IMG/VR virus record: IMGVR_UViG_3300008459_000050 | Span: 1 to 57,915 of that record | From: a virus | Taxonomy: Duplodnaviria > Caudoviricetes | Strand: one strand, 5' to 3' | DNA: 57,915 nucleotides | In this document: piece after piece, positions 22,659-44,727 of the stretch | Position numbering within the stretch: the first letter of the stretch is position 1 | Layout of the letters: every line of letters begins with the position of its first letter | Made by a program: the position numbers and the translations under genes | Notes under the pieces: model-generated | Told to the model about the DNA's origin: nothing | Database searches by the model: none | Seen by the model: only the letters and a program-made list of their open reading frames with translations

Positions 22659-23273
22659 TTATTTTGTTAAATATGATGAAAATACATAATATGTATCAAC
22701 TAGTATAGTTGAATCTTTTTCAAATTTAATTTCTGTATTAGTTATTGCAGCTGGTATCATATAATCACCTGTAGCATTAGATTTGTCTGGGGCGATAGTT
22801 ACTGTTGCTATAGATTCTGCTGCAAAAGGTAATCCAAGTATTTTGGATTGTGCTGATGAACTTAAATTATTTGTAATAGCGTTACGAACATTGCACCATA
22901 TATTAACTAATTTTCCTATTTTAACGTACTTAGCATTATCAAAAATAGGATCAGGTGTCCAACCAGATCCACCTTCAATTGGTGTCCATCTTCCATACTC
23001 ATAATCGTCTAGAAAACTACCAGAAATAGTTCCAGTTCCTCCTGTAGACATACCAAACTCTATGCCACCATTAGTACTTATGTTTATTTTATTTGTAAAT
23101 GTATTAACAGAACTAATATTAGAGCCAGTAATTGTTTGAAATATTCCTAACGAAGAATTAACCCCAGAAGAAGCTGTAAGGTTAGAACCATTTACAGTTA
23201 GTCCTTCTATTTTTCTTTCTGTTGCAACAACTTTATTTCTAATTCTTGAAAATTCTGATTCATTTATAGACAT
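22659..23273 (-). CDS. Tail fibre-like protein
   Basis: LDDYEYGRWTP...YVKIGKLV...GLPF C-terminal fibre domain. Confidence 0.7.
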   Translation of the reverse strand: MSINESEFSRIRNKVVATERKIEGLTVNGSNLTASSGVNSSLGIFQTITGSNISSVNTFTNKINISTNGGIEFGMSTGGTGTISGSFLDDYEYGRWTPIEGGSGWTPDPIFDNAKYVKIGKLVNIWCNVRNAITNNLSSSAQSKILGLPFAAESIATVTIAPDKSNATGDYMIPAAITNTEIKFEKDSTILVDTYYVFSSYLTK

Positions 23274-23282
23274 TTAACCAAC

Positions 23283-23873
23283 CTACAGTACATAACTTTC
23301 TGGATTTTCATTTACTGCTATTAATTTATATAAATCACCTGTACTTAACGCTGGGGCGTATATTTTAACCCACACTTCATCATTCAAAGATCCACTCTGC
23401 ACCAAATTCACCGCTATCAAATCATTCACCCAATTGCCATCTTCCTTCACTGTAACATTGATATTGATAAAGTTAAAGGAATCAATATTAAAAGCTGATT
23501 TTCCGTATTGTACTGCTGGTAATTGGACTTGTGCATACCCCTCAGTGTCAAAATTACCTGTTAGTTGATATCTGAGTCTTTTATAGGCATCAGATGAGTT
23601 ATTAAAACTAGTATCTACAGCATGGAATGCTTGATCTATATTATATTGACCTTGTGAAGAAGTAACTATATTTAAATTAATAAATGATTCTGTTGTTTTT
23701 GTATTTAAATTAGGTGTATATACTGAAGAACCAAAGATTGGAAGAGAGGAGCTAACATGACCAGCAGAAATTGTTCCAGAGACTTGAAAAAGTAGATTAT
23801 CGCTTGTATCTCTTTTTATTATTTGTTTCTTTGTGAGGAGGTCTGTAAGAACTTTAACTGGTTTTGTTGCCAT
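23283..23873 (-). CDS. Putative virion structural protein
   Basis: Beta-rich 196-aa ORF in the tail module. Confidence 0.6.
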   Translation of the reverse strand: MATKPVKVLTDLLTKKQIIKRDTSDNLLFQVSGTISAGHVSSSLPIFGSSVYTPNLNTKTTESFINLNIVTSSQGQYNIDQAFHAVDTSFNNSSDAYKRLRYQLTGNFDTEGYAQVQLPAVQYGKSAFNIDSFNFININVTVKEDGNWVNDLIAVNLVQSGSLNDEVWVKIYAPALSTGDLYKLIAVNENPESYVL

Positions 23874-23953
23874 TAACTTATTCCAATCTTATTTTTTATA
23901 CGTTAATTAGTTTTATATTAGATATACAACCATATATAGATTGATTTTTATCA

Positions 23954-23994
23954 TAAATAAACGGAAGGAGAACGGATTACTCCACTCTCCTTCC
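23954..23994 (-). terminator. Intrinsic terminator
   Basis: GGAAGGAGA/TCTCCTTCC 9-bp stem followed by GTTTATTTA on the minus strand. Confidence 0.7.
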
Positions 23995-24020
23995 ATTATA
24001 GCATCGATTGTATTGTTATT

Positions 24021-25241
24021 TTAGACGCCCAAATAATATCCAGCCAACACAAGTGTTCCGGTTATTTGAGTTCCAACATTTAAATTCTGTGTTCTCCACC
24101 AAACACCAGTATTTTGTCCAACTGCCTTACATTTACTTGATCCATTTGGAGTCTGTAGAGGGATTTCAATAAACTCAGTTCCAACTGTCATACTGCCAAC
24201 GGAACTATTAACTGCAAGATCATTAAATGGGAATCCAGATCCTGATAAACCTACTGAAATATAAGGACTGGCTGTGTTATCACCAGAAGTTGGAAAAAAC
24301 ATACAATTAGATGGTATAAATGTTCCTTTTCCTGTGTCTGTTGTAAAAAACAAGTTTTGAATAATATTGCCTGCTGATCCGCTTATAGTTGCTTTATATG
24401 TAGCATTTCTATTAACTGTGTCATATGTATATGTATTATCTATTGCTGTTAATTTACCTGTTGAATCAGCATATACAGCTCTTGTTGAATTACTTTGTAA
24501 ATCTGTTACATTTACTGAGCCGGATACAACTACCTTATTTGTATAAACTTCAAATATATTACTTCTTTTAGGAAAAGGAAAAATAAATTGATCTCCATTT
24601 CCAATTAACATTAATGCAGTTGAGCTTGTTTGATTCAATATTCCTTGGACGTGCTGATGTGAAGCAGAAGCAATCGTATCAAAACCCTCAGAATGAGAAT
24701 AATCACCATACGCTATAGTCCCAAGCCCTTCTGCGTGTGAAGAATATCCATAAGCTTTTGTGGTGCTTCCTTCTGCGTGAGAATTATCGCCATGTGCTTC
24801 TGTGCGACCTCCCTCTGCATGTGAAAATGCACCAGAAGCAACAGATCCACTTCCTTCAGCATGTGAATAAATACCAGTTATATTTAACAATACTCCATTA
24901 GCAAATGATCCACTAATAATATTTGTGTTTGTAAATATATTTGAAGCTGTTAAAATAGCAAATTCTGTTGAATTTATACCATCTAATTTATCAGCATTTG
25001 AAGCTGTTCCAGTCAGATCTCCTTTAAAGCCAGCAGATGCTGTAACAGTAATAACAGATAAATTGTCAGGAATATTAGACGATGGTAAATTTGTTAATTG
25101 TGACCCATCACCTTTAAATGACCCAGTAACTTTTTGATCAACTTGATCGTTACGAACAAATTGAGTGGAACTAAGCCCATCTAAAGTATTTGCATTAAGA
25201 GGTGAAGGTAGTTTTGTTTTAGGATTTGTTATACTGGACAT
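24021..25241 (-). CDS. Tail fibre/adhesin with YadA-like SHAEG repeats
   Basis: Two NAxxLDG repeats, GDGSQLTNL, five 14-aa-period SHAEG repeats. Confidence 0.75.
   Translation of the reverse strand: MSSITNPKTKLPSPLNANTLDGLSSTQFVRNDQVDQKVTGSFKGDGSQLTNLPSSNIPDNLSVITVTASAGFKGDLTGTASNADKLDGINSTEFAILTASNIFTNTNIISGSFANGVLLNITGIYSHAEGSGSVASGAFSHAEGGRTEAHGDNSHAEGSTTKAYGYSSHAEGLGTIAYGDYSHSEGFDTIASASHQHVQGILNQTSSTALMLIGNGDQFIFPFPKRSNIFEVYTNKVVVSGSVNVTDLQSNSTRAVYADSTGKLTAIDNTYTYDTVNRNATYKATISGSAGNIIQNLFFTTDTGKGTFIPSNCMFFPTSGDNTASPYISVGLSGSGFPFNDLAVNSSVGSMTVGTEFIEIPLQTPNGSSKCKAVGQNTGVWWRTQNLNVGTQITGTLVLAGYYLGV
24643..24870 (-). repeat. Coding tandem repeat with 42-nt period (SHAEG beta-roll)
   Basis: YSHAEG/FSHAEG/NSHAEG/SSHAEG/YSHSEG/HQHVQG. 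Confidence 0.85.
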
Positions 25242-25244
25242 AAT

Positions 25245-25703
25245 TTAGTACACCTCTGTTACAGCAACAGTCATTGAAGCTGATGTAGCAATTGCTGATG
25301 AGCTTGGGACAAATATCATGTGTTTTAATGCTGATGTAGAAGGATCTGCAAAATAAGTAGCTCCACTATCTAACATAATTGAATAGCTTGATGGAGGTGC
25401 TGTATTGTCAGTTATTTCTCCAAATGTTCCACCAGCGGCAGACATTAAAATATAACATTTACCAATATCTGAGTTGTTTTGTATTACAATGCTTTTTCTA
25501 GTTTCAGCAAACTGTGCAACTGTTGGAGTCTTATTATCATCCCAGTTCCATCCAGACGGACCATTTGTATAATATAATGTATTGCTTGAAGTAGTAACTG
25601 TTGAAACTATTGAATGATTGGAAATATATCCATAACTAGAAGAATTTACTTGTAAACTTTTTAATGTTCCATTTCCATCTTTTATATATAAACTTTCAGA
25701 CAT
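25245..25703 (-). CDS. Putative virion structural protein
   Basis: S/T-rich beta protein, GAGGA SD. Confidence 0.6.
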   Translation of the reverse strand: MSESLYIKDGNGTLKSLQVNSSSYGYISNHSIVSTVTTSSNTLYYTNGPSGWNWDDNKTPTVAQFAETRKSIVIQNNSDIGKCYILMSAAGGTFGEITDNTAPPSSYSIMLDSGATYFADPSTSALKHMIFVPSSSAIATSASMTVAVTEVY

Positions 25704-25716
25704 TTTATTTCCTCTT

Positions 25717-26781
25717 TTATCCTAGAATCATCACAGCATATGAATCAACTGGTATAATTTCACCCATATCTATTGTTATTTGGTTTAAATCATTATAACC
25801 AATAGCAACTTCAACTTGTGAAAAGTCGGAGTCTGGGAGATTTTCTCTAACTCTTACAAGAATATCTTTTGAGTTATATCCATGAGTTAATGTATAGTTT
25901 GAATTTATGCCATCACCAATTATAAAAACTTTTTTAACAAGTACAGATGTCGAGAGTTGTTTAACACCAATATTGTTCTGTGGTAGTGTTCTACCTCTGC
26001 CCTGATCATCTTCACCAACAAACATAAGAGTTTCTTTTGGAAACTTTAATTCGACTGCGTTTTCTTGTTCTATTATCTGTGGTTTCTCTTGATTTGCACC
26101 TTCACCAATTAAATACCCAAGAACCTTAACATTTATTGTACTTTTATATTTTCTTTCTTCTTCACCAAGATTTATTGCTTCCTGTTGAAAGTTTTGATCC
26201 ATGAAAGATTCATAACGATAACCATCTTTTTTAATTAGGAAATAATTCTGTGCAACTCTTGACATGAAAGGTTGCATTATTTCATTCATCTGTGATTGAT
26301 AGTTAGTTAAGATATTTATTTTATATTCAACTGTTACATATACTGGGATAGGTACTGAAATAAATTTATAAACTTGTTTTTGATTCTTTTTTGAAGTTAC
26401 GAAATTTATTTGTCCACGAGTTTTTAATGTATCTGTGTTAGCAAAATTAGCTGTTTTATCTTGATTTAGTACTTTAGCATAAACATATCTGTCGTTATTT
26501 GGTGAAAGATTGGATTGAAATGCACCTTTTTTATTTGGATCTTTTGTTACGCTGGATCTTTCAATAGATATAATAGGAGGAATCAGTGAACCATTTTTAT
26601 CTCTTAGTTCACGGTTGTTTTTTATCTGGTATGCTCGTTCTGCTGATGACCAAATTACAGGAACCTTATCCCAGCCGTTTATTGTATTACAAAATAGGTT
26701 TAAACCCTCCACATATTCTAGGAAGGCACCGTCAATTGTTTCAATCGTACTTGGTAAAGTTTGTAAAACTTGTTCACTCAT
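25717..26781 (-). CDS. Tail completion/sheath-stabiliser (gp15-like) protein with extra C-terminal domain
   Basis: KVPVIWSSAER, PIISIER, PVYVTVEY...QMNEI, K.T..VKVLGYL. Confidence 0.6.
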   Translation of the reverse strand: MSEQVLQTLPSTIETIDGAFLEYVEGLNLFCNTINGWDKVPVIWSSAERAYQIKNNRELRDKNGSLIPPIISIERSSVTKDPNKKGAFQSNLSPNNDRYVYAKVLNQDKTANFANTDTLKTRGQINFVTSKKNQKQVYKFISVPIPVYVTVEYKINILTNYQSQMNEIMQPFMSRVAQNYFLIKKDGYRYESFMDQNFQQEAINLGEEERKYKSTINVKVLGYLIGEGANQEKPQIIEQENAVELKFPKETLMFVGEDDQGRGRTLPQNNIGVKQLSTSVLVKKVFIIGDGINSNYTLTHGYNSKDILVRVRENLPDSDFSQVEVAIGYNDLNQITIDMGEIIPVDSYAVMILG

Positions 26782-26782
26782 T

Positions 26783-27688
26783 TTATATATCTAGTTTTAA
26801 TTTAAAAGTAAAGTCTCTACTTTCTGTTTTTCTTACTGGTTTAGCTAATTTTGCAACACCTATTAAATTTTTATGTTCATCATATATACCTATTTTACTA
26901 ATATAGGTTTGTTTCTCTAAACTACCAGTAAAGTTATCGTATGGATACTTTGTTATGTTTTTAATCTCCAAGTATTCAGGCTCTTTATAGAAATTAGAAC
27001 CAGATGAAACAGAATATTTTACTGAATCACTATATTTTACATAAGTTGGATTATTAGAATGGTTTAATTCCCCTTTTTCAGCATGTGTAAGCATTGTTAA
27101 GGTTGGAATATAACTTGTTCCATTAAATTTTAAATCATAATTTACTTTATCGTTTATCTCTTCCTCAGAACTTGTCCCATACTGACACCATTTTAAATTG
27201 CTTTCATGTTCCAAACTACCAGTTAATAATATAAATCCATGATTATATAGAACAACACCAGCTACGGAACCTGAGTGCGAGCCAGTTACTTCTTTTAGGG
27301 AGCCATTAAAATCAATATCTTGAAGTTTTGCAACAACAGAACCAGTATAATTTAATGTTAATTCTACTGATCCTTTCTGTATCGAAGAACCAAAAAAAAT
27401 AGATGGTATAGAAATAAGTGTTAATTCAGCATTACTTACATATTCTTCTTTAAATTTATAATCTGGGTTATTTACTGAATAATAATTTAAAGTATTTCTA
27501 AGTGCCTGTAATTTTTTTCTATCTCCAGTACTAGAATCGTAATATTTTATATCTATTGAACTTGATAAAGGTAATTGAAGTTTTAGTTCATTATTTGGAT
27601 TAAATTTATTTTTAAATATATTCTCTAATGTCGGCGTTCCAAATAATTCTCCGTATGTTGAGTATATGTAATAATCAGGATTTGACAT
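26783..27688 (-). CDS. Virion structural (tail/baseplate) protein
   Basis: NHSNNPTY...YISKIGIYD...GVAKLAKP...KLKLDI; paralog of 27917-29071. Confidence 0.7.
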   Translation of the reverse strand: MSNPDYYIYSTYGELFGTPTLENIFKNKFNPNNELKLQLPLSSSIDIKYYDSSTGDRKKLQALRNTLNYYSVNNPDYKFKEEYVSNAELTLISIPSIFFGSSIQKGSVELTLNYTGSVVAKLQDIDFNGSLKEVTGSHSGSVAGVVLYNHGFILLTGSLEHESNLKWCQYGTSSEEEINDKVNYDLKFNGTSYIPTLTMLTHAEKGELNHSNNPTYVKYSDSVKYSVSSGSNFYKEPEYLEIKNITKYPYDNFTGSLEKQTYISKIGIYDEHKNLIGVAKLAKPVRKTESRDFTFKLKLDI

Positions 27689-27916: not shown

Positions 27917-29071
27917 TTAGAAATCTAATCTTGTTCTAAGAATAAGTTCTGTTTGTGGATCTTTGCGAATAGGCTCAGAAAGCTTGGCAACAGCTAGCAA
28001 TTCATTGTCTGGTGAGTATAGACCAACTGTTGTTATATAAGAAACTGGGGCATCTGCTTGAGTGTTTTTTACATATATCTGACTTCCGCTTAGATATGTC
28101 GGATTAGAGCTATAATTAAATTCATTGTGATTAATACGACAGAAATAAATTGATGAATTTAACTCAGTTGTATTTTGGAATGTTATATTTTTAATATGAT
28201 CTCTGAATGCTTTGTTGATATCGTCAACCGTGCCAGATGCAAATAATTGTGCTTCATTCCAAGGAGAACCGTTATTTGGATCATCAAAATAGACTGCTTG
28301 AGTTGGAAGCGCTAACTGACCTTGAGTAGATAATTGAACTGATCCGGTTGGATTAAATGTAGTATCATACTTTGCAAATATATTTGTAGATAATGCAACA
28401 ACGCCAGCTTGATAGAAAATTAAACCAACTTCTTTGTTTGCTTGTGCAGTCGCTAAGGGATCATTATCGCCATTTTTTGCATATAAAATACCATATTCGC
28501 CAACTGGTGAATTAATAAAATTATTTGTTGAACCACTTGCGTCAACAATTTTAATAGTATCTGTAAATACAGTTGGTCCGCTTTCTACAGCACCAGTTAC
28601 ACCAACTTCAATTTCAAATGTACCTTTTTTAATTTCATCCTTAACAAGTAATCTATTGAAATTTAGGAAATACATATGGTAGAACTTATCTGATGTAGAA
28701 CCACCGGCTTGATCACCATCTCTATCAAATGTATAGATAGACCCAGTAGAATCATATCCAAGAAGCACTTGTGCCATTTGGTTGTATGTATTTACTTTTT
28801 TGTTATACTCTTCTGTGTCTGTTGAATTAAACCAAGGAGCAGCAAACTTAGGTGATATACCAACCGTCATATCAAAAAGTTGATTAGCTGATGAGCTTTG
28901 CCAAGGATAATCATAAACACTTTGAAACATTCCATGTGTATATGATTTAATATTGCTGCCATTATACACAGAACTGGAGACAATGCTTCCGGTGATTGGA
29001 ATATTTTCATGCAATAGTGTTCTTGTTGAAACAACGTCGTTATCTAAAAAGCTTTTATATGTTGTAGCCAT
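27917..29071 (-). CDS. Virion structural (tail/baseplate) protein
   Basis: FNYSSNPTY...YITTVGLY...LLAVAKLSEP...RLDF. Confidence 0.72.
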   Translation of the reverse strand: MATTYKSFLDNDVVSTRTLLHENIPITGSIVSSSVYNGSNIKSYTHGMFQSVYDYPWQSSSANQLFDMTVGISPKFAAPWFNSTDTEEYNKKVNTYNQMAQVLLGYDSTGSIYTFDRDGDQAGGSTSDKFYHMYFLNFNRLLVKDEIKKGTFEIEVGVTGAVESGPTVFTDTIKIVDASGSTNNFINSPVGEYGILYAKNGDNDPLATAQANKEVGLIFYQAGVVALSTNIFAKYDTTFNPTGSVQLSTQGQLALPTQAVYFDDPNNGSPWNEAQLFASGTVDDINKAFRDHIKNITFQNTTELNSSIYFCRINHNEFNYSSNPTYLSGSQIYVKNTQADAPVSYITTVGLYSPDNELLAVAKLSEPIRKDPQTELILRTRLDF

Positions 29072-34125: not shown

Positions 34126-35051
34126 TCTTTCCCGAATGGACCATCATCTAGGTTAATATTTGTTTCGTATATTCCGCTTGTTATGTTCTTTTTCTTTTCA
34201 TCTGGAAGATCAACGATTTCTTCATCAACTGTTATGTTTAAGTAATATTCAACGTTTCTTATAGTTGGTTCTAATTCGTCAGGAAACTCTGGGTTGTCTA
34301 ACAGTATCTTATTTTTAATAACTTTTGGTTTATCAAAGAAAAAAAGTTGTCTTAGTTCTTTTTTTGATGTATTATTTATTTGTATATCTTCTTCAATAAA
34401 CACCTCTATATCAAAGTTTTCTTTTTCATCCGATGTATTATTTTCTGATATTTCAAGTAAAAATTGGCAATCTTTTTGGGATGAAACAACAATATCATCG
34501 CCAAACATTGCATATACTTCTTCGTCTTCTCCTAAATTATCTATATCCTTAATGGTTTTTAGAGTAAATATACCATCGTTTAAGTTAATTTGAGGGTGTT
34601 TAAGTAATTGATGAATAGATCCTGTGCCTTGATTAGTAAATTGACTTGTTGTATTTGTGTTGATATAACCATTTAATACTTGTAGATTCCAAGATGGTGC
34701 GTATTTTGAAGATAAGTCAGATGTACCAAGTTCGTTAATTAAAGCAAAGTTATCATTTCCTATTATTTGACTCTCTGCGATTGATGAACTTAATTGATTA
34801 GCGAAATCTTTTGGTGCGTCTTTTTTACCTCCATAGTTATATTGTGCTTTAGAGTATGGAGTTTCGTCTAAAATTCTAGTTTGTGAAGCATTTTGCGATT
34901 CTGTTATAGCTGTATAATGTGTATCATATAGGATATCACCATCGTAAAAAGCGTAATATTTTGGCTTAAATTTGCCTTTTGATAGCAAATATCTCCCGTA
35001 ATGTGTTAGTTGTATGTCTAATACTTCCTGTTTGCTATCAAAAAACGACAT
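34119..35051 (-). CDS. Virion structural protein
   Basis: LDIQLTHYGR.LLSKG...YYAFYDGDILY; N-terminus resembles 29096-29995. Confidence 0.68.
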   Translation of the reverse strand: MSFFDSKQEVLDIQLTHYGRYLLSKGKFKPKYYAFYDGDILYDTHYTAITESQNASQTRILDETPYSKAQYNYGGKKDAPKDFANQLSSSIAESQIIGNDNFALINELGTSDLSSKYAPSWNLQVLNGYINTNTTSQFTNQGTGSIHQLLKHPQINLNDGIFTLKTIKDIDNLGEDEEVYAMFGDDIVVSSQKDCQFLLEISENNTSDEKENFDIEVFIEEDIQINNTSKKELRQLFFFDKPKVIKNKILLDNPEFPDELEPTIRNVEYYLNITVDEEIVDLPDEKKKNITSGIYETNINLDDGPFGKDC

Positions 35052-35059: not shown

Positions 35060-38000
35060 CTATTCGTATAGTGATGGAGTATATTTCTCTGTCTCTACCG
35101 TCTTATTTACTTCCAAACCTGCCTCTACATTAATTAGCTCAACAAGTGAAAAATTATCATAAGGCCAGTTATATGAAAATTCTGGAACTACATCTTGACC
35201 TTTGATCTTAAATTTAAATCTTTCATCGTCCTTAGAATCGGCAGTTAGTTTATAGTAGTTAATATTTGCACGTTTCTTGACCTTGAAAATCTTAAATTTT
35301 ATATCTTCTGGTAATTTCTTTCCGTGGAAGAACTCATCTTCTGTAAAGTTATGAGAGATCGTTTCTTCTTCCTCTTCAACTTTTTTAGATAATTCTGGCA
35401 TGACGCCTTGCCAAATATCAGAAAGATCTTTTTGAGTTAGTTCGCTCTTAAATTCAAAGAAATACATAACAAACGGATTAATATCTCTATTCCTTAACCA
35501 GTCAAGATGTGGTGGAAGTACATAATTTGCCATACCTTTCATAGTTTTAACAATGCTATTATTTAGTTTGTCACCTAGGTTAGAGTTTAATATCGATAAA
35601 ATTTGGTCTGTTGTTATTTTATTTGAGAACTGTATATTTAAAAGTTTTTCTATTGTATTTTTTTGAACATCAAAGAAATAACCAGGCTCATTAGAGAACT
35701 TATTTTTTAAGGTTTGAGCTTTAGACCTTAATTCAGATTTTGTCCATCGATTATATCTATTTTTTTGCTGGGTATATGGAATAACTATAATACCTTCCGA
35801 TATTTCCTTCTTGGATGCTATTTTGCCAATAGTTTTCTTTTCATCTTTCTGGAATCCGCACATCTTAATAAGTGAATCGCCTACAGTATTTTCTTGTAGA
35901 TACATTTTAATACGTGGTGAACTATCGCTTACTGGTTTATCACTATATGTTGTCCACAGACCTTTATATGAAACATCAACTAATGCATCTATAGCATCAA
36001 AATCATACGTGCTTTCTGTTCTGATAAAGGCACCTATATTTTTTGGTTTATTTGGTATATCAATATTAGCAAAATTTATACTTGGAGTTTCAAATTTTGT
36101 TTGAATTACCCATGAATATGTAGTAGATGCGTCTCTATCGTTTATTTCTAAAGGTGTATTATTTAAAGCGTTATATGTAACTCTTTTATTTTCTGTCTTT
36201 AACATCAAATTAACACTAGATGATAAAGTCATCATTTGTTGATATGCTGGTGAATTTTTATAGTTTTCTAAATAATTAACGCCATAATATTTTAAATTAA
36301 GTGGATAAACTTCATCTTGTACAGTATAATAACTATCATACAGATCTATTTGCAAAGGAGGTGGTAGATCAAATCTTTGTGAAACTATAAAAGTTGTTGT
36401 AGTTGTAGTTCCTAAGAAACCAGATCTAGCTTTAAATAAAGCCTCTGCGTCTTCATTTATGTACTCTATTTGTAATTTATTAAATATTTCATCAAGTGTA
36501 TATTTTCTTGTATCATCAGCAGTAAATTTTAGTCTAGCTATTGATTTACCATAGTAATACGGTGGAACATATGGAGCATAAGCTGGGGAGTCATATAGTT
36601 TTGATATTCCTGAGTAATAACTCACACTAAATTTACTATTATTTAAATCTAAGTTATCAAAAAACCTAACTGGAGGACCGTAAATAGAATCTGTTCCGGG
36701 TAATGTTAAATAAGACCCAGTATACAATGAATCTATACTTCTAATGTTATCAAAATACTTATTAAAAACAAATTCACGATATTCTTTATCGCGTTCCAAT
36801 ACAATATCCATCGAATAAGTTGTGCCTGATACAGCTACATCAAATGCCCAGTCTTCTCTGGAAACAAAGTTTGATAAATTATTTTCTAAGAAGAAATTAG
36901 GTATCTCAGCAAGAAAATTATGCATACCTAATTTGTAATTTGGTTTATCGAAAGTAAAAGATTTAATGTTATTTTTTGTAGATAAGTTATATGAAGGAAG
37001 TGCTAGTGAGTTTCTATCACTACCAGATATAACATCTGTAGAATAATATGTTGGGTTTAGATAAAATAAATTAGACGATGTTGTTTGTAGAGAACTTGGT
37101 ACAATTGTGTCAAATTCAATAAGTGATTCAAATGGGAATCTATAATTCAAAGAGCTTGAGATATGAACTGCACCAGTATAATTTGTAGGTAAATTATCAG
37201 CTGTGTTATATCCTTTAATGTGTCCATAGAATGCAGGGAGTGAAGATGAACCTAGACCATAACTTGCAGATATAGAACTTGTTATAATAACCGGGAAATC
37301 AACAGCTATAGAAGATTTAATAGTGTTAAGTAATACTCCTGGCGCAAATAATGGCTGAGTAATAGTTAACACCTGTTGATCTATAGGTGTTCCGTTTGAA
37401 GTAGCGCAATCATATTTTTTACCAGCTATAATAGATGATGTTGATTGAGCTACAAAATCTTTATTTAAATTAACAAATGAATTAACAAACTCTGATCCTA
37501 GTTCAGTCACTTTTTCACTTGGATAAAATCCTCTATATGGTAATAATTTTTTCAACGCTGACACTTTTAAATTTAACTTAACATTTTCTTGTTTTGCTTT
37601 TATTTCATCTAAATTAAATTTAAAAATAGTATTTGTGTTAATAAAAGAATTATTAATATCTTTATATTCGTAATTTAATCCGCCGTCTAGATTTAAATAG
37701 GATGAAGATAGCTGACTATTAAAACCATTATTTATATAATGATTCATAAAATTATTAATTGTAAATTCTGGAACTAATGAATATTGTAATGATTGTTCTT
37801 TTAAACCAAAATTAAATTCTTCGTATGAATTAAAAAATGGTGTATTATTAGAAGTTTTATCTAAATCATATTCATATCCATTGTTTATAAAATAAAGAAG
37901 ATTAGAAATATAAGAATTTCCAAAATAATTATTAACTACGCCATTATTGCTAGTTTCGTCAGGGTAACTCAAACCATTTACAGAAAGCGAACCACTGTTA

Positions 38001-41000
38001 TAATAATCATAATTTGGTGTTATAAAATTGTTAAAAACATATTGAAGGCGTGTAGATAATCTATCAGTAGAATACTTAAAAGCTTGAAAAGTATCTTTTA
38101 TTGTATTTGTCTGAATTAAAGAATATTCCCCTGATGCTGTAGTGATAAAATATCTATGCTCTGGAATACTATATGATGCTAGAGCGCCTTTCATTAGACC
38201 GCCGTAACTCATAGTAAGTCTTGTATTGCTTGAAGGTCTACCCTCTCCTACATCACCAGTGATAGAACCAGTATATTGACTACTTGATCCCGTCAAGCTA
38301 TCCATTGAGAAGATAGAAGCAGTTGATCTATTTTTTATCTGATGCAACACTGGGAACGTTCCCACGATGGAACTTGTAAAGTCATTTAGAACACTATAAG
38401 AAGAAGTTACATTACCAAATATATCATAACAACCATCTATTCTTCTACGATCAAGATAATCATCCTTCCAAAATGTTCTCATATCTACAACACTACCTGT
38501 AAATCCTGAGTCATCATATAGAGGTCTTGTGCGACTTTCTTTTAGACCAACATTTTCTTTCTTTGGAAATATAATTTCTGCATGTGAAACGCTTAAAATA
38601 TCTGGTTTTGGATCAAAGCCAATGTTTTGTAGTTCAATTAATTTATCGTGTGCCTGTTGTTCTTTACGTGTTACAGCGTTAGTTGATAGAACCAGATCAG
38701 AATTTGCAAATGTATTTCTATTATTATCGTATGTGTTTGATAGAAGAATATCTTCTGATCCACTCATACGTATAATATGATTCATTGGCTTGTTAAATTC
38801 AACTGGTGGTTCACGATATACATTGTCATCTACTAATATGTTATTATTTTTTCTGCTATCGACAACAATTTTGTTCTCTGCACCACGTAGGAATTTCCAG
38901 CTTGCTCCTTGATATGGCCCATTTAAATTATGTAAATACGCATTTAGATCAAGAGAGCTTGTTAAAACATCAATTGTTTTAGTTGAAGTATCAATTATTT
39001 TAACAACTGATGATGTTAAATTTAAACCTAAGAAATCAGCATTGCTTGCACTAATAAAAGCAGCACTTGAGCTATTATAGGAATTTAAATTTGCAAATTC
39101 GTTAAAATATCCACTAACTTTTGGTCTAGATACAAGTGAAGCTGTTATCCAAGCGTATTGAGCATCGCTTTGAGGTATTTGATGTGAGATAAACCCATTG
39201 TCATATTTAACAACTGTATTCTCATCTTCGTCAAGATAATAACCTGGGTTTTTAGGTACGCTATGATAAGATAAATTTTCTGGGTCTATACTAGATGTTT
39301 CAGAAAGCCATTGGTTATACTGATTACGAACAATTAGATTTCTATTGTTTAGACCGTTGTATACAGAAAATTCCTCTGACTCAGGGTTCATAGCACCACG
39401 GCTATTAACTTCTGGTCCACCGGGTGCAGAGAATCTTTCAACAAATACTGTTTTTACAACTGATCTTTCTGGTAGTTTGCGATCAACAATACCAAATATA
39501 GGAGAGTTTGTAGCTGTTATATCTAGTTCATCAATTATATCTGGTAATTCTAAATTATTATTTGTTCTACCAGATGTTTGAAAATATTCATATCTATTTT
39601 TATAATTGCCAACTCCACGTTGCTTAGTGAATAATTGCCCAGAACCAGTTAAACTTGCACTGGCGAATACAAACTCATTGCTTATTTCTGTGTTTTTAAT
39701 GCTTACTGGGTTTATTACATCAAGTGGATTAATTTCTTTATTTGAAAGTATTCTAACAACATTAGAGAAAGTTCTTGTATTGTCTCTTCTGCCTTCATAT
39801 ATAGCTTCATTGTCTTTATCGTATAGATTTGGTAGAGTGTTTAGGTTTTTAGCAATCTTTACTTTACGTATAATTTCTCTATTTTCATCTATTTCTGGAA
39901 CGTTTGTTGCAACTAGTGGATCTGTTCTATTTACACGATCTCTTAACCATAATTCTCCTGCTGGAGAGGCTGGTGCTTTTTGATCTTCATATTTGAAATC
40001 TAGATGCGAACGGAATGATGGAATTTTATTTTTCTTTAATTCTACAATTGGTAGTTTATTTTGATATTTGTTTCTTTCAAGTATGTGACTTTCAACAACA
40101 TTTCTTACCTTGTCAGATACATTTGCAGAAGCTGGTATCAATTGTTGTACCATCAATGAAATAGACGAATCTATCCACTTATAGAACTCAAGGAACTTTT
40201 CAAAATCTGGTGTATTTCCAACTTTTTCAAAGAAAAGCTGTCTCATAAATTCTAGATTTTTATATGAAACACGATATTTTTCTATTGGTTCGCCAATTAA
40301 ATTATTGAAAGCATCTATTGCAGCAAACCACTTAAGTATTTCATCATTAATAACTGCTGACATACTTTTTTCAATAGAAAAGAAGTATTTAACTGGTCTT
40401 GAATCTTTTGTTGTGATAATATCATCAACATCTCTGGCTTCAATTAGATCATTTGTTGAGATTGTTTCTGGGTGTTGTTGTTTTGCGGAATAGATATATT
40501 CCCTGTTTACTACTTGAGAACTGTTAGATGGGAAATATTTACCAATACCTTGATGATTTTCACCAATGATTGGACCTAGCCAGCCGCCTTTTGTAAATTC
40601 CTTATTTGATGTATCTTCAACAATAAATTCACCAACTGAATCAGATGATGTTACTTGATTAAAATCCCAATTTAGGACGAGCATATCGGATCTTGATAAT
40701 CCTAATGTGCTATCGTCAGAGAAATTAATAAAACTATTCCAATAAGGATATTGTCTACCATAGTTAGAAGCATCCTTGGAATGTTCTTGTATTTCTTTAT
40801 TGTTTAAATAATCAAGCCAAAACCGAACAGAAGATACTTTTATATCTGAAAAGTATTGTATACTTGATCCATTATATCTGGAGCCTGCATATATCTTCTT
40901 TTCTGTTTTTATTGCTTGTTGCATATCATATTCAGGCACAACAATAGATGAGCTAAATATATTTTCTATAGTTTCTAGTGATGAATTGATGCCGTCAAAT

Positions 41001-43285
41001 TCTATAATATAATCACCAGTAGTGCTTTCTTGAGCAATACTGATATTATCAAACTTTGAATGTTTTATTCTAGTTATAAAATTCCATCTTTGATTATCGT
41101 AAACATCTGTAAATACAGTAGATGAGGATAACTCTACTGCAACTCCATTAAAATTACCAGATAATTTAAAATACACATCTTTACTGTCAGATGAATCTCT
41201 TTCAGCTGTTACAGCAAATGTAAATAATGAAGAGTCATCATTAACACCAAATATCGATACAGAGTTAAAATCAGCGTTTGAATAGTTTGGATCGTTTACT
41301 TCTGGTTTCTTTGGGAATATTGCTTCGCATTGAAATGTTAGCGGAATGAATAGGAATCTATCATCATTTTGATCTATACTAGATGATTGAATAACTGTAG
41401 CTTCATATCTATCTTTATGATTAAAGTCAACAAATTTCTTTGCTTCGGAGGTATATCTATAACTATTATCTAGCTTATATGTTGTGTTGTCAGCATATAA
41501 ATTGATTTTGATCAACTCATCATCAACGCCAAAGCAACGTATAAGGTTTCTTATTGATTTTTCTGTACCTTTTGATTTGTAAATGTAAGCTAGGTTGTTG
41601 TAGATATTTTGATATATTGTGTTTTTAATATCAGTTAGGCTTTTTTCAAATTCTCTCTCTTCATTTCTGGATAGTACATCTTCGATAAAAGTAGAGTTAT
41701 TGAATATATCAATATTTTGAAAATCATATGAAGATAGGATACGGTTAATAAATGGCGCTGGCTTGTCATCTTCAGAGTAGTATTTTACCTGTTTAAGAGA
41801 TGGTAGACCTTCAATTTGAAGATGTAATGTATCAAAATAGCTAGATATTATCTGAACTAAATGTGATAGATCTTCTGATCCTACTTTTTCTTGTTCTTCA
41901 ACAATCCAAGCTGGTAAACTCTTATAGATATTTGAATTATTTTCTGTATCCCAAAGAGAACCAGACAAGGTACAGTTCTCTAGAGTTTGTTGAACTAATG
42001 GATGCTGTGAATAAATGATTGGATCTGGTTTTTCTGAGTATTCTTCGCTATATTCATTGATTGCAGATCCTGTATTACGTACAGAAGAGTTATAGTTTAT
42101 TATTGTACCGTTTGAAATACGACCTGAGTAGTCTAATACTCTGGAATCTATACTGCTATCACCAGTTATACCTTCGTTAAATTTGTAATATACACCAAGA
42201 TTTGTGTTTGCATCGTCGGTATTAGTGCCACCGCCGATAGATGTAAACCAGTTTCTAGCTATTTGCTGTGAAGTACGGGCAGTTTTCCAGAATCGAAATT
42301 CATCGATAGAACCAATAAAACTACCTAAACCTTCAAATCCTTGATTATAAGATCCTAGTGTACCTATTAAATTATTTTCTTCTGGTTGAAGTATTGGCTT
42401 CTCATCTACAGTATGTATAAGACCGCTACTTTCACTATAAAATTGTCCATTTATATATATTTTTATATATGTTCTTTCATTATTAGAATTTACTTTTGTT
42501 TCATTTTCAAAAACTATTGAATAATGATTCCATGTAAATTTATTAAAATTCAATGGATATTGAACTACGTGCTGTCCAACTTCATCGTCTCTACGTATCA
42601 ACACTGCTATTGAATCAAAACATAATTCTATTGATAAAAAAACACAATTTTCATCACCTGGTGAAACGCCATTCCAAACGTTAAAAACATTAGTCTTAAA
42701 ATTACTAAAAGAATTTAGATTGCTATCTAGCTTTGCCCAAAATTCTACTGTATTACCTTTATTATTTGGATTTATTGCTAGATTTGATCCTCTGTTACTA
42801 GGGGTATCATAAATATTTGAAGTACTAAAATTTTCTACTACACTAGATCCAACTGAACTAGTGTTTGGACCACCATAGAATTGTATATAAGTATGATTAG
42901 AAGAAGAGAGATAATTTGATGTTCCTAAGCTTACATCACTACCGCTTAAATTCACATAACCAGTGGTTTTTGGATAAACATTATCAAATATGTAATTATC
43001 GAACTGAGATGAATTATTCTTCCATCCCAGTTTTTCTTTCTTAGATCCGTCATATGGATATCTTTGATAGATATTTTTTATAGCATCTGAATAGTATTTT
43101 TCGGCAGAACCATAACGTGCAAAACTAGAAGCTGATGAGAAATCAACAGATGGTAGAAATCTATTGTTATCAATAACAACTTCTTCTAAATATTCTTTTG
43201 ATTCTGCTTCTTTATATAATGTTTCTAGTTGCTGTGAAGTAACGATTTTTTCAGATGTTTTACCAAACAGATCTTTTAAAGACAT
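35060..43285 (-). CDS. Giant baseplate wedge-like protein with LamG/ConA domains
   Basis: 2741 aa; TVEFW, WNHYSI, GSIDEFRFW (LamG); IYKSKGTEKSIRNLIRCFG wedge motif. Confidence 0.78.
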   Translation of the reverse strand: MSLKDLFGKTSEKIVTSQQLETLYKEAESKEYLEEVVIDNNRFLPSVDFSSASSFARYGSAEKYYSDAIKNIYQRYPYDGSKKEKLGWKNNSSQFDNYIFDNVYPKTTGYVNLSGSDVSLGTSNYLSSSNHTYIQFYGGPNTSSVGSSVVENFSTSNIYDTPSNRGSNLAINPNNKGNTVEFWAKLDSNLNSFSNFKTNVFNVWNGVSPGDENCVFLSIELCFDSIAVLIRRDDEVGQHVVQYPLNFNKFTWNHYSIVFENETKVNSNNERTYIKIYINGQFYSESSGLIHTVDEKPILQPEENNLIGTLGSYNQGFEGLGSFIGSIDEFRFWKTARTSQQIARNWFTSIGGGTNTDDANTNLGVYYKFNEGITGDSSIDSRVLDYSGRISNGTIINYNSSVRNTGSAINEYSEEYSEKPDPIIYSQHPLVQQTLENCTLSGSLWDTENNSNIYKSLPAWIVEEQEKVGSEDLSHLVQIISSYFDTLHLQIEGLPSLKQVKYYSEDDKPAPFINRILSSYDFQNIDIFNNSTFIEDVLSRNEEREFEKSLTDIKNTIYQNIYNNLAYIYKSKGTEKSIRNLIRCFGVDDELIKINLYADNTTYKLDNSYRYTSEAKKFVDFNHKDRYEATVIQSSSIDQNDDRFLFIPLTFQCEAIFPKKPEVNDPNYSNADFNSVSIFGVNDDSSLFTFAVTAERDSSDSKDVYFKLSGNFNGVAVELSSSTVFTDVYDNQRWNFITRIKHSKFDNISIAQESTTGDYIIEFDGINSSLETIENIFSSSIVVPEYDMQQAIKTEKKIYAGSRYNGSSIQYFSDIKVSSVRFWLDYLNNKEIQEHSKDASNYGRQYPYWNSFINFSDDSTLGLSRSDMLVLNWDFNQVTSSDSVGEFIVEDTSNKEFTKGGWLGPIIGENHQGIGKYFPSNSSQVVNREYIYSAKQQHPETISTNDLIEARDVDDIITTKDSRPVKYFFSIEKSMSAVINDEILKWFAAIDAFNNLIGEPIEKYRVSYKNLEFMRQLFFEKVGNTPDFEKFLEFYKWIDSSISLMVQQLIPASANVSDKVRNVVESHILERNKYQNKLPIVELKKNKIPSFRSHLDFKYEDQKAPASPAGELWLRDRVNRTDPLVATNVPEIDENREIIRKVKIAKNLNTLPNLYDKDNEAIYEGRRDNTRTFSNVVRILSNKEINPLDVINPVSIKNTEISNEFVFASASLTGSGQLFTKQRGVGNYKNRYEYFQTSGRTNNNLELPDIIDELDITATNSPIFGIVDRKLPERSVVKTVFVERFSAPGGPEVNSRGAMNPESEEFSVYNGLNNRNLIVRNQYNQWLSETSSIDPENLSYHSVPKNPGYYLDEDENTVVKYDNGFISHQIPQSDAQYAWITASLVSRPKVSGYFNEFANLNSYNSSSAAFISASNADFLGLNLTSSVVKIIDTSTKTIDVLTSSLDLNAYLHNLNGPYQGASWKFLRGAENKIVVDSRKNNNILVDDNVYREPPVEFNKPMNHIIRMSGSEDILLSNTYDNNRNTFANSDLVLSTNAVTRKEQQAHDKLIELQNIGFDPKPDILSVSHAEIIFPKKENVGLKESRTRPLYDDSGFTGSVVDMRTFWKDDYLDRRRIDGCYDIFGNVTSSYSVLNDFTSSIVGTFPVLHQIKNRSTASIFSMDSLTGSSSQYTGSITGDVGEGRPSSNTRLTMSYGGLMKGALASYSIPEHRYFITTASGEYSLIQTNTIKDTFQAFKYSTDRLSTRLQYVFNNFITPNYDYYNSGSLSVNGLSYPDETSNNGVVNNYFGNSYISNLLYFINNGYEYDLDKTSNNTPFFNSYEEFNFGLKEQSLQYSLVPEFTINNFMNHYINNGFNSQLSSSYLNLDGGLNYEYKDINNSFINTNTIFKFNLDEIKAKQENVKLNLKVSALKKLLPYRGFYPSEKVTELGSEFVNSFVNLNKDFVAQSTSSIIAGKKYDCATSNGTPIDQQVLTITQPLFAPGVLLNTIKSSIAVDFPVIITSSISASYGLGSSSLPAFYGHIKGYNTADNLPTNYTGAVHISSSLNYRFPFESLIEFDTIVPSSLQTTSSNLFYLNPTYYSTDVISGSDRNSLALPSYNLSTKNNIKSFTFDKPNYKLGMHNFLAEIPNFFLENNLSNFVSREDWAFDVAVSGTTYSMDIVLERDKEYREFVFNKYFDNIRSIDSLYTGSYLTLPGTDSIYGPPVRFFDNLDLNNSKFSVSYYSGISKLYDSPAYAPYVPPYYYGKSIARLKFTADDTRKYTLDEIFNKLQIEYINEDAEALFKARSGFLGTTTTTTFIVSQRFDLPPPLQIDLYDSYYTVQDEVYPLNLKYYGVNYLENYKNSPAYQQMMTLSSSVNLMLKTENKRVTYNALNNTPLEINDRDASTTYSWVIQTKFETPSINFANIDIPNKPKNIGAFIRTESTYDFDAIDALVDVSYKGLWTTYSDKPVSDSSPRIKMYLQENTVGDSLIKMCGFQKDEKKTIGKIASKKEISEGIIVIPYTQQKNRYNRWTKSELRSKAQTLKNKFSNEPGYFFDVQKNTIEKLLNIQFSNKITTDQILSILNSNLGDKLNNSIVKTMKGMANYVLPPHLDWLRNRDINPFVMYFFEFKSELTQKDLSDIWQGVMPELSKKVEEEEETISHNFTEDEFFHGKKLPEDIKFKIFKVKKRANINYYKLTADSKDDERFKFKIKGQDVVPEFSYNWPYDNFSLVELINVEAGLEVNKTVETEKYTPSLYE

Positions 43286-43287
43286 AT

Positions 43288-44727
43288 TTACCCAACCTTG
43301 AATTTAAATGTAGTTGGTGCCTCCTGTAGGCTGGCACCATCCCATCTTGCTAACCTTATTCCATAAGTATATCCTGGTTGTAAAATTGACATATCTAAAT
43401 CAAAGTAATTACCGTTTGAATCATACGATGTCTTTGTATAAGCCAAGGAGCCTGTGGAGTAATCTATTACAGTATAATTATCGTTTAGTCTGAAAATTTT
43501 GTAATATAAATCTGTTAAAACTGTATTTTCTACTGTATTATACGCAACTGTATAGATTGTTGGTTGCCAATCCCTTTCTCTGATAAATATTTTAAATCGA
43601 ACTGTCTCAGAAGTTAAATAATCTAGCTTATTATTTGTAATATTTATTACATATTGTCCATTATCGTTGAAGTCATAGTTTTTTCTATCTAGTACATCAA
43701 ATGAACCTTGAAAATAAATACCGTTACTGCTTGTATTATACCATTTATCATATAGTACACTTGAAGTTGTGTCTATGATTACTGTTGATTTATAAACACC
43801 AACTGATGGATTTGAAACTTCTTTAAATGCAGCAGTTACTTCGCTTGTTAAATTAGAATTTGAATAAAATTTAACTTCTGGGACAATATTATTAACGATA
43901 TTTTTTAGCTTTCCGTTGACTTTATTATAGAAATAAATGTTCATTTTGTTATCATTTTCCGATAACGCCTCACTGTATGAATAAAAGTTATTTCTATCGT
44001 CTGTATTTATTGCTTCCCATCGTGTTTCAATAACTGGTCGTTTATAGAAGAATTCACTGCCTCTTGCTGAGAATTTTTTTGTGAAGAAACTCTGTTGCAT
44101 CGTTCCATCTTCATATATATCAGATAGTTTTACAACAAATCCGTTATTTTCTGATGTACCGGCAATCCAATCTTCAACAATATCAGTTACGTCAACCTCT
44201 AAATCTTCTGTTCCTTCTTTAAATTCGTAATTGTAGAGATAAGAAGCTGATGAATAATCGCCACCTTGCTTACTCCATTGTTTATCTTTTAATGGATATA
44301 TCCAAGTAGCTCCATTTCCATAACTATATGAGCTTGTATATGTACTATTCCAGCCATAATCTGTGTATGTCTCCATATCAAGACCAGAGCCTTCGTCCCA
44401 TGCCCCAGAAATGGGCATTATATCGACGCTAAAGCCCCTAGGAACAGAGTATGGATGTTTTACGTTAAAGAGCCTTAAATAATGTCTAACGTCTCCGTCG
44501 GCTGGTATTGCGCCTTTATCTCTGTCATCGGAGATTTGCTCTATTGGAAACTGTATAAGAATTCTACTTTGTTCCGCAGATGACGAAAAAGCTTGACCAT
44601 ATATAGAAAATATCTCTAATGAATCAGAGGCTCCCATATTTGCATTGTAAGCTCTTGTAATAAGGTTATTATTATAGGCATTTGTTATGGTTGTATCTTT
44701 TTCTGCTACATATCTTTTAATTGACAT
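43288..44727 (-). CDS. Virion structural protein (DNRLRE-like N-terminal domain)
   Basis: KDTTI, SRILIQF, WDEGSG, GGD, DVTDIV..W...NNGFVVK pattern. Confidence 0.6.
   Translation of the reverse strand: MSIKRYVAEKDTTITNAYNNNLITRAYNANMGASDSLEIFSIYGQAFSSSAEQSRILIQFPIEQISDDRDKGAIPADGDVRHYLRLFNVKHPYSVPRGFSVDIMPISGAWDEGSGLDMETYTDYGWNSTYTSSYSYGNGATWIYPLKDKQWSKQGGDYSSASYLYNYEFKEGTEDLEVDVTDIVEDWIAGTSENNGFVVKLSDIYEDGTMQQSFFTKKFSARGSEFFYKRPVIETRWEAINTDDRNNFYSYSEALSENDNKMNIYFYNKVNGKLKNIVNNIVPEVKFYSNSNLTSEVTAAFKEVSNPSVGVYKSTVIIDTTSSVLYDKWYNTSSNGIYFQGSFDVLDRKNYDFNDNGQYVINITNNKLDYLTSETVRFKIFIRERDWQPTIYTVAYNTVENTVLTDLYYKIFRLNDNYTVIDYSTGSLAYTKTSYDSNGNYFDLDMSILQPGYTYGIRLARWDGASLQEAPTTFKFKVG

Follow-up and report, generated by a model that had tools for sequence, protein, structure and literature searches.

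A serine tripeptide enriched on outer baseplate and fibre proteins of T4-related aquatic phages: a candidate virion O-glycosylation sequon

Here we focus on a tripeptide, [ST][GAS]S, that recurs in the tail proteins encoded by a 57,915-nucleotide stretch of viral DNA (IMG/VR record IMGVR_UViG_3300008459_000050; hereafter the window). The window spans the whole source record and comes from a T4-related myovirus, of which it is a 57.9-kb fragment; its G+C content is about 31%, and all of its genes lie on the minus strand. An earlier sequence-only reading had noticed the tripeptide in a subset of the tail and baseplate proteins and had taken it for a candidate glycosylation sequon. The excess of the motif in tail proteins is real and is confirmed here: on the outer baseplate and fibre proteins, the carriers (named below by their length in amino acids, aa), it lies three to five times above chance. 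As to its meaning, we see an even chance that the extended form phi-[S/T]-[G/A/S]-S-phi, in which phi is a hydrophobic residue, is a Ser O-glycosylation sequon on putatively exposed parts of the virion, which would be served by a phage-encoded pair of family 4 glycosyltransferases (GT4).

Pooled over nine carriers, the motif occurs in 84 copies. Local shuffles of the same proteins gave 24.7, 25.3, 26.9 and 29.4 expected copies at blocks of 40, 20, 10 and 6 residues, respectively; against such shuffles the pooled count stands at z ~12, and the highest of 1000 shuffles reached 46. Because the excess survives down to 6-residue blocks, it is not explained by local composition. When each protein was shuffled as a whole (2000 shuffles per protein), the 2741-aa (38 copies versus 10.0), 406-aa (12 versus 3.6), 301-aa (8 versus 1.2) and 384-aa (7 versus 1.4) proteins were each enriched at p ≤ 0.0005 and the 479-aa protein (6 versus 1.7) at p=0.0075, and for the 204-, 196-, 152- and 310-aa proteins no excess was significant singly (p 0.04-0.17). 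The sequence-only reading had counted 38, 12, 8, 7, 6, 4 and 4 copies in seven of these proteins, and all seven counts were reproduced exactly; the enrichment likewise survived every composition-preserving shuffle, whole-protein and local, which that reading had proposed as a check. Terminase and primase, said to have none, indeed have 0 and 0. The one to three copies claimed for each of four further proteins are correct for Mre11-Rad50 (2), gp6 (2) and the 856-aa protein (1) and too few for the 1976-aa protein, which has 4.

The main carrier, the 2741-aa protein, keeps its 38 copies against 11.4-12.8 in local shuffles. Its sites cluster in residues 1200-2200, with none past residue 2355, and it has no internal repeats. 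Comparison of the carriers with themselves and a search for tandem repeats in the DNA gave no protein self-matches, no tandem repeats and no favoured spacing, in agreement with the earlier description of the copies as dispersed, and internal or tandem repeats are thus ruled out as the origin of the counts. The accompanying claim that the carriers have unrelated folds is only partly right, as the 301- and 384-aa proteins are paralogues (BLASTP E 1e-7; the paralogy is also evident from consensus sequences).

The residue specificity of the motif is crisp. When all tripeptides in the tail block were ranked without any prior choice, TGS, TSS, SGS and SSS took ranks 1-4 and TAS rank 9. Across this block [ST][GA]S occurs 51 times versus 16.5 expected, whereas [ST][GA]T occurs 11 times versus 12.6, and permuted orders reach 1.2-1.8x only; by residue class, the ordered motif is raised 2.9x and its permutations 1.5-2x. 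Relatives tell the same story. IMG/VR yielded 468 and 316 relatives of two carriers, of which 80 loci each (160 loci) were kept. Among 376 carrier orthologues (225,000 residues), the raised cells of the x-y-Ser matrix are TGS (6.85x), SGS (4.56x), SAS (3.26x), SSS (3.17x), TAS (3.01x) and TSS (2.05x). Since no other cell stands out, the family data select exactly the six tripeptides of the motif as it was originally defined. At position 3, Ser is raised 3.66x and Thr 1.24x in these orthologues, and position 1 shows no excess for N, D, P or G (NGS 0.8x, DGS 1.2x, GGS 0.7x). The flanks are biased as well: as had been remarked before, a hydrophobic residue often precedes the motif (56% of sites versus 34% background), another is found at +3 in 54%, and charged residues at -1 fall to 4% versus 22%. 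The resulting pentapeptide, phi-[ST]-[GAS]-S-[phi/A], is ~10x enriched, with 32 copies versus 2.8 in the window and 1218 versus 119 in the family. Both Ser codon families are used at the motif, in background proportions; therefore, the constraint acts on the protein, and a DNA-level signal is ruled out as the source of the motif.

The enrichment is maintained across orthologues. Observed copies exceed expectation 4.65x for the 301-aa protein (596 versus 128; 65 unique sequences), 4.08x for the 479-aa protein (784 versus 192; 68 orthologues), 3.61x for the 384-aa protein (528 versus 146; 67 orthologues), 3.27x for the 2741-aa protein (1384 versus 424; 94 orthologue fragments) and 2.99x for the 310-aa protein (114 versus 38; 71 orthologues). 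The small 196-aa (54 versus 12.2, 4.4x; 7 orthologues) and 152-aa families (14 versus 7.0; 3 orthologues) follow suit, and no orthologues of the 204-aa protein were found among the fetched loci. Non-carriers of the same neighbourhood lie on the other side of expectation, namely gp6 (46 versus 105, 0.44x, 68 orthologues; 0.43x versus local shuffles) and gp25 (6 versus 11.9, 0.50x, 62 orthologues), and the other non-carrier orthogroups give 0.52 (505 aa), 0.41 (297 aa), 0.71 (Mre11-Rad50), 1.13 (TerL) and 1.16 (primase). An excess was present in 160/160 related loci (pooled 1.64-6.97, median 3.8). A motif-less sub-lineage was sought among them and none was found; the lowest ratio, 1.64, belongs to a contig (L077) that has both glycosyltransferases (GTs) discussed below. 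The excess holds over orthologues that are 40-60% identical and over phages whose gp6 proteins are ~30% identical.

Individual sites behave in two ways. Some are nearly invariant, such as SSS at residue 59 of the 384-aa protein (67/68 sequences) and TGS at residue 425 of the 479-aa protein (61/67), and at another single site SSS, SGS, TGS and TAS replace one another. The orthologue alignments have 59-82 distinct start columns per protein, and with all columns conserved in at least 50% of sequences masked, the residual sites are still 2.06-2.97x above local shuffles. This suggests that selection acts on the density of the motif and not on its position alone.

By TerL identity, Flavobacterium phage vB_FspM_immuto (42%) and Microcystis phage Mel-JY01 (41.5%) stand nearest among cultured phages, with Rhodothermus phage RM378 more distant (30%), this kinship being read from identities and gene content. 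RM378 is described as the reference phage in culture for the 'Far-T4' group (PMC4360716). Downstream of gp6, immuto encodes gp111 (7 observed/1.4 expected), gp109 (10/4.4), gp105 (7/2.2), gp102 (11/4.0) and gp101 (60/20.3), and Mel-JY01, with a gp6 only ~30% identical, has proteins right after it with 6/1.3, 18/5.6, 9/2.5, 9/2.1, 11/1.8 and 8/1.9. In a near-complete relative (G001) the significant carriers are, besides the tail-block proteins, a neck protein similar to gp13 (6/1.1) and a head-module protein of 677 aa (24/7.0); its major capsid protein, sheath and portal are non-carriers, and the rest of the genome has 74 copies versus 78 expected. A second genome (G002) has four carriers and 1.01x in its remainder. 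In RM378 two adjacent proteins are enriched (8/1.7 and 6/1.2), with 2-3 enriched proteins in all, and in the jumbo phage LR756508 the excess is weak and non-significant. T4 itself has ~1x in baseplate, fibres, Hoc, sheath and capsid (39 observed versus ~40 expected over 28 proteins), which rules out a generic trait of T4-like baseplates and fibres. The excess thus appears, from the genomes compared, to be a clade trait confined to a subset of virion proteins. Among the structural proteins of T4, gp48, the baseplate tail-tube cap (L162), is the sole one that is mildly raised (7 versus 2.9); in the rest, the counts do not exceed expectation or are very small.

Structural models were available for two carriers. 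The AlphaFold2 (AF2) model of the 479-aa protein (predicted local distance difference test, pLDDT, 87.3; predicted template modelling score, pTM, 0.81) consists, by fold matches, of tandem Ig/FN3-like and CBM-like beta-sandwiches, and all six of its sites (6/6) are in coil or turn, 3 of them directly before a strand. Mapped over the 479-aa family, 624 sites fall into coil (320), the edges of strands (128), strands (102) and helices (74), and in 327 of the 624, motif position 3 falls within a strand or immediately before one. A beta-turn nature of the sites, which had been named beforehand as a reason to discard the glycosylation proposal, was not borne out: the sites are mostly in loops or at strand starts, yet turn formers (N/D/P/G) at position 1 are not enriched. 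The AF2 model of the 384-aa protein is moderate (pLDDT 68.6), with 5/7 sites, including the invariant one, in low-confidence segments, and a fold search with a model of this pLDDT gave no match at E<=0.001. The most conserved stretches of this protein are residues 54-63 and 304-336, with D54, Y55, P56, S59, S60 and N63 and the block N319, Y320, S321, N323, Y326 and S330 invariant, yet both stretches have pLDDT<50; therefore, the models suggest that they fold in a partner-dependent manner.

The proposal of a glycosylation sequon had drawn on a GDP-fucose synthase and a sugar epimerase at the head of the gene block, and these annotations stand: the window ends in part of an Fcl-like gene (E 5e-42), followed by a gene for a short-chain dehydrogenase/reductase (SDR) of the epimerase type (Table 1). 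These two are the only sugar genes within the window, and the Fcl-like gene is the last gene of a sugar island. The order of sugar island, gp55 and baseplate genes is kept in relatives. Among those with at least ~1.6 kb visible upstream of gp55 (13 relatives; 63 open reading frames, ORFs, scanned), 13/13 have nucleotide-sugar or GT genes there, in 2/13 as a single nucleotide-sugar or transferase gene. The content is very variable and includes GMD, epimerases, DegT aminotransferases, NeuB with a CMP-transferase, WbqC, C-methyltransferases, radical-SAM enzymes, APS kinase, UDP-glucose dehydrogenase, GT1, a CAP59-type transferase and a weak Maf/MptE-like match. Upstream of its late block, G001 has a PD-(D/E)XK nuclease, GMD, three GT1 genes, a CAP59-type transferase and a C-methyltransferase, and in immuto five glycosyltransferases are annotated within an 11-kb cluster.

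Within this variety, little is constant. Reciprocal best matches shared by G001, G002, a third genome (G003), immuto and Mel-JY01 are a nuclease and two tandem GT4 genes (30-60% identity), here called GT-A and GT-B, and the other sugar genes of the islands are not common to these five. GMD adjoins the pair, which in immuto corresponds to gp181 and gp180. Both proteins of G001 match Pfam Glycos_transf_1 (GT-A 60.3 bits, GT-B 30.3 bits, cut-off 26.4), with six-frame matches in 5/5 genomes. Both GTs also have an invariant E-x7-E (E249...E257, A3; E274...E282, A4) within EGFGLxxxE, and E-x7-E is the catalytic signature of family GT4. The best 120 homologues of GT-A are 62-100% identical, lie on contigs of up to 315 kb and bear generic names only; judging from these matches, an abundant uncultured group has GT-A among its core genes and keeps it highly conserved. 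Neither GT of the pair was found in T4. In Mel-JY01, GT-A (L219:7442-8930 (+)) is annotated as two ORFs of 190 and 302 aa that match its N- and C-terminal halves, so that the gene is split or its sequence contains a frameshift error.

For the phage of the window, the position of the pair has to be read from relatives. The 286-aa epimerase found no relatives when used as an anchor; the Fcl fragment did. In 7/14 of the closest Fcl relatives the order is nuclease, GMD, GT-A, GT-B, ~6 kb of variable genes, Fcl and gp55, with the GT4 pair 6-8 kb upstream of Fcl and gp55, and in a complete genome (G005) GT-A lies ~12 kb upstream. Because of this gene order, the GT4 pair of the source phage is probably located just beyond the end of the window. 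As had been asked of the proposal, co-occurrence was examined: there were no relatives that keep the motif without sugar genes, and every motif-bearing genome examined has the GT4 pair. Glycosylation of DNA by these GTs is unlikely on the gene content. A ThyA-type hydroxymethylase (PF00303) is absent from G001, G002, G003 and Mel-JY01 and is present in immuto only, and in the DNA of immuto dA, dC and dT are described as canonical, with dG replaced by fdPreQ1 (PMC10516641). T-even type DNA glucosylation as the target of the GTs is therefore disfavoured.

In the mechanism that we propose, the tag would be carried by the outer baseplate, the fibres and, in relatives, by neck- and head-associated proteins. 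The phage-encoded GT4 pair (GT-B fold, retaining) would place a residue derived from a GDP-sugar on the tag Ser in the cytoplasm of the infected cell, with position 3, being strictly Ser, as the likely acceptor, and enzymes of the variable island would then lengthen the glycan in a strain-specific manner. We infer that the pair acts on the carrier proteins, that Ser is its acceptor and that the donor is a GDP-sugar; that the glycan might serve as a shield or in host range is pure conjecture. Taken together, the residue rule, the outward-facing targets, the turnover of sites and the clade-specific co-occurrence with GT4 would fit a sequon read by an enzyme, for which we consider the chances evenly balanced. 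A broader picture is a serious possibility, though somewhat short of probable: an abundant aquatic T4-related clade may possess its own protein O-glycosylation code, in which the GT4 pair primes Ser and the island builds a strain-specific coat. Tentatively, the island can be likened to an O-antigen locus that would supply GDP-6-deoxyhexoses, nonulosonic acids and C-methyl, amino and sulfated sugars, with every outward-facing virion protein targeted. Phage particles would then, in effect, have 'serotypes' selected like those of their hosts.

Several known systems resemble parts of this proposal. GtfA/GtfB is a tandem pair of GT-B proteins, an O-GlcNAc transferase that glycosylates Ser in Ser-x-Ser-rich adhesins in the cytoplasm. 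Both phage GTs keep E-x7-E, whereas GtfB is not known to be catalytic; the match of a phage GT to GtfA (4PQG, called Gtf1) is only E 0.009, runs typical of serine-rich repeat proteins, S[AVTE]S[AVTE]S, occur 0 times versus 0.4 expected, and there are no long tandem Ser-x repeats. The general O-glycosylation of Bacteroidota uses the sequon D-[S/T]-[A/I/L/V/M/T], a three-residue O-sequon that likewise ends beside a hydrophobic residue, and the cultured relative immuto infects Flavobacterium. The Bacteroidota pathway is periplasmic, however, and virion proteins do not reach the periplasm. Its sequon, searched for as D-[ST]-[AILVMT], is not enriched (20 versus 19.4 in the window, 1.03; 774 versus 822 in the family, 0.94). 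Nor is the N-x-S/T sequon of N-glycosylation (1.11 in the window, 0.98 in the family), and a PglB-type pattern is raised mildly, 1.2-1.4x only.

Among phages, mycobacteriophages are described as O-glycosylating their virions with phage-encoded GTs at the C-termini of capsid and tail-tube proteins (work cited in PMC12619734). The likeness lies in the proposal that GTs encoded by a phage modify proteins of its own virion. The mycobacteriophage glycans were seen by experiment, whereas the sites described here are candidates drawn from sequence, and instead of capsid and tail-tube C-termini the motif marks dispersed tripeptides on baseplate, fibre and neck proteins, with major capsid protein, sheath and portal as non-carriers (G001). 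No paper that describes this motif, or glycosylated virions of the phages studied here, turned up in our literature searches. The bacterial autotransporter heptosyltransferases (BAHT; TibC/TibA, AAH/AIDA-I) are reported to O-glycosylate many Ser, not Thr, of a beta-rich surface protein in the cytoplasm (PMC4358343). As described there, this is a Ser-specific, multi-site modification made in the cytoplasm before assembly or export, as in our proposal; therefore, cytoplasmic Ser-specific multi-site O-glycosylation of beta-rich surface proteins has a precedent. The BAHT enzyme is, according to the same account, an iron-containing dodecameric heptosyltransferase and not a GT4, of the two modified sites given there (PMC4358343), N-S-G-G and T-S-A-A, neither has the form [ST][GAS]S with its acceptor in position 3, and the substrate is a repeat beta-helix in contrast to the dispersed sites found here. 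The best solved relative of both conserved phage GTs is B736L of chlorovirus NY-2A (PDB 3OY2), described as a virus-encoded, retaining GT-B enzyme that binds GDP-mannose, from a virus with its own GMD-based synthesis of GDP-6-deoxyhexoses (PMC4691112). The similarity is modest (E 3e-14 and 8e-9), the host is eukaryotic, and chlorovirus capsid glycans are described as N-linked (PMC7826918).

The earlier inference of dense O-glycosylation is thus strengthened by a conserved GT pair, GDP-sugar genes, a hypervariable island and an unlikely DNA target, and weakened by confounding and by GTs that lie outside the window. Of the four refuting conditions that the earlier reading had named, three were examined, and none of them spoke against it. 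The observations that weigh against the sequon can be gathered here. The presence of the GT4 pair in this phage is read from relatives, and the co-occurrence of motif and GTs comes from one clade, with T4 as the sole negative; because of this, the link is phylogenetically confounded, and no independent gain or loss was found among the 160 loci. LR756508, with its weak motif, has only GT-A of the pair, and RM378 has GT-A and a weakly similar GT-B-like neighbour, yet few enriched proteins and a homologue of the 384-aa carrier at 1 versus 1.2. In the 479-aa family 230/624 mapped sites overlap a strand, about half of all occurrences are positionally conserved, and the hydrophobic flanks would also be compatible with a structural strand cap. 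The chosen non-carrier orthogroups are depleted (0.73x), but the remainder of two complete relatives, G001 and G002, is near expectation (0.95-1.01x), from which it follows that the depletion is not genome-wide and that a genome-wide avoidance of the motif in non-carriers is not supported. Finally, it is possible that the sugar islands of aquatic phages equally serve glycans of the host envelope.

Several of these points would be accommodated by the main rival reading, a lineage-specific structural element, namely a loop ending or beta-strand N-cap in beta-sandwich modules to which the sugar genes are unrelated. We regard this as unlikely, but as a reading to be taken seriously, and we give the same limited credence to its extension, in which the motif was inherited and re-invented since it is useful for folding, assembly or solubility. 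The location of sites in loops and at strand starts in the 479-aa protein, the frequent placement of the third residue in or just before a strand, the hydrophobic residues on both sides, the near-invariance of some positions and the beta-rich nature of the carriers, two of which are paralogues, all argue in its favour. Against it, baseplate, fibre and the Ig-like Hoc of T4 are without excess, and beta-rich proteins of the same block (299-, 354-, 505- and 856-aa proteins and gp6) are non-carriers. Classical turn formers are not enriched and Thr is no substitute at position 3, labile, non-homologous sites are still 2-3x enriched, and in the 384-aa protein the monomer model leaves the segment with the best-conserved site unstructured (pLDDT<50).

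Both the sharp residue preference and the confinement to a single clade speak for a reader that co-evolves with the motif, and this reader need not be the GTs. The motif could be a tag for another trans-acting factor, through phosphorylation, acylation, phosphoglycosylation or the docking of an assembly chaperone or decoration protein, with the GTs serving glycans of the host envelope or others. Some islands have APS kinase, radical-SAM enzymes and methyltransferases, and relatives have a chaperonin and ClpP, yet no kinase or other candidate enzyme is conserved beside the tail block in the genomes annotated, in which the conserved island neighbours are the two GT4 genes and a nuclease only. 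We consider this tag improbable. Far less probable still, and strongly disfavoured, is the absence of any function, in which case the motif would simply arise from variable loops rich in Ser, Thr and Gly or from a mutational bias of tail genes that evolve fast. The carriers are indeed richer in Ser and Thr (9-17% Ser), and all permutations of the residue classes are mildly raised. Against this stand the z of ~12 kept in local shuffles, an ordered motif that exceeds its permutations with codon use at background, and an excess that persists at 40-60% orthologue identity and ~30% gp6 identity.

If the glycosylation sequon is true, many of the 'auxiliary' sugar and GT genes of abundant aquatic phages, now usually read as host-surface or DNA-modifying functions, would be genes for building the virion. 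Lake and ocean phages would have dense, strain-variable glycan coats on their adsorption apparatus, which would bear on host range, on adhesion to particles and mucus and on how well virions withstand proteases and grazers, as well as on the annotation and recombinant expression of tail proteins, and the motif would be the first short sequon in the glycobiology of bacterial viruses. As two motif-bearing relatives, immuto and Mel-JY01, are cultured, the idea is directly testable. Even if the motif is structural, a tripeptide that is 7-fold enriched and kept at ~30% core-protein identity would amount to an unexplained rule of protein architecture.

Table 1. Carriers, contrast proteins and other features of the window (site counts are copies of [ST][GAS]S, observed versus expected where two numbers are given).
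Feature	Position	Strand	Sites	Remarks
204-aa protein, last tail-block gene	22659..23273	-	4 vs 1.5, p=0.07	
196-aa protein	23283..23873	-	3 vs 0.7, p=0.04	
406-aa tail fibre/spike-like protein	24021..25241	-	12	PHROG tail-fibre matches
152-aa Ser-rich protein	25245..25703	-	4 vs 2.2, p=0.17	
301-aa carrier	26783..27688	-	8	paralogue of 384-aa protein via shared C-terminal domain
384-aa carrier	27917..29071	-	7	paralogue of 301-aa protein
310-aa tail-block protein, weak carrier	34119..35051	-	2 vs 0.4	not significant singly
2741-aa outer baseplate protein, main carrier	35060..43285	-	38	Laminin_G_3; ConA-like lectin domain, residues 174-343
479-aa protein directly after gp6	43288..44727	-	6	chain of Ig/FN3-like and CBM-like beta-sandwich domains
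gp6 inner baseplate wedge, non-carrier	44727..46526	-	2 vs 2.1	PHROG baseplate wedge
gp25 baseplate wedge, non-carrier	46546..46926	-	0	Pfam GPW_gp25
gp55-like late sigma factor, between sugar genes and baseplate block	55132..55818	-		phrog_234 E 4e-6
286-aa NAD-dependent sugar epimerase/dehydratase (SDR)	56505..57365	-		Pfam Epimerase E 7e-44
GDP-L-fucose synthase (Fcl)-like, C-terminal part, cut by window end	57365..57913	-		NCBIfam GDPFucSynFcl E 5e-42, positions 134-304/308
Prohead protease, 350 aa	856..1908	-		weak intein match E 1.8e-4; 202 aa in relative G001
GIY-YIG/NUMOD3 homing endonuclease among head genes	2967..4073	-		Pfam/PHROG; relatives have similar ones elsewhere
Portal gene with intein, LAGLIDADG domain	7648..10908	-		Intein_splicing E 5e-15
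Mre11 (SbcD-like) and Rad50 (SbcC-like) fused, one 1058-aa ORF	16986..20162	-		Pfam, PHROG

Some features of the carriers and of the islands deserve mention in their own right. Residues 110-248 of the 406-aa protein are 43.5% identical to a protein of immuto annotated as 'tail spike protein', and the 286-aa SDR matches no NCBIfam equivalog above cut-off. The APS kinase and the radical-SAM/SPASM enzymes found in islands (L183:3764-4351 (+), L183:1358-2449 (+), L187:1187-2044 (+)) are hints of sulfated or otherwise unusual sugars. One island (L179:163-6943 (+)) has NeuB, a CMP-transferase, WbqC, a hexapeptide acetyltransferase and PIG-L, with the look of a nonulosonic-acid pathway, and its first ORF has an MptE-like match below threshold (E 9e-6, 26 bits versus a cut-off of 34.6); the MptE-like domain is that of the Maf flagellin glycosyltransferases. 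Inside another island lies a protein similar to the RuBisCO large chain (L164:4222-5409 (+), Pfam RuBisCO_large E 1.7e-33), with NeuB, a nucleotidyl transferase, a histidine phosphatase and an RraA-like aldolase as its neighbours.

In the rest of the window, Pfam and PHROGs recognise TerL, primase, a RuvC-like resolvase, gp25, gp6, an SLT-domain protein and the gp55-like late sigma factor, and the T4-type portal, terminase, gp6, gp25 and gp55 (Pfam, PHROG) provide a Far-T4 or immuto-like context. The T4 late-promoter consensus TATAAATA has 12 matches in the window versus 13.6 expected and is therefore uninformative on timing. Besides the intein of the portal gene, the window may have a second one in the prohead protease, since this protein is longer than its counterpart in G001 and has a weak intein match. 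G001 encodes a Cpn60-type chaperonin (L203:1822-3045), a ClpP protease (L203:6422-7090) and a DNA polymerase III alpha subunit (L203:12680-16114), and immuto encodes both GroES and GroEL.

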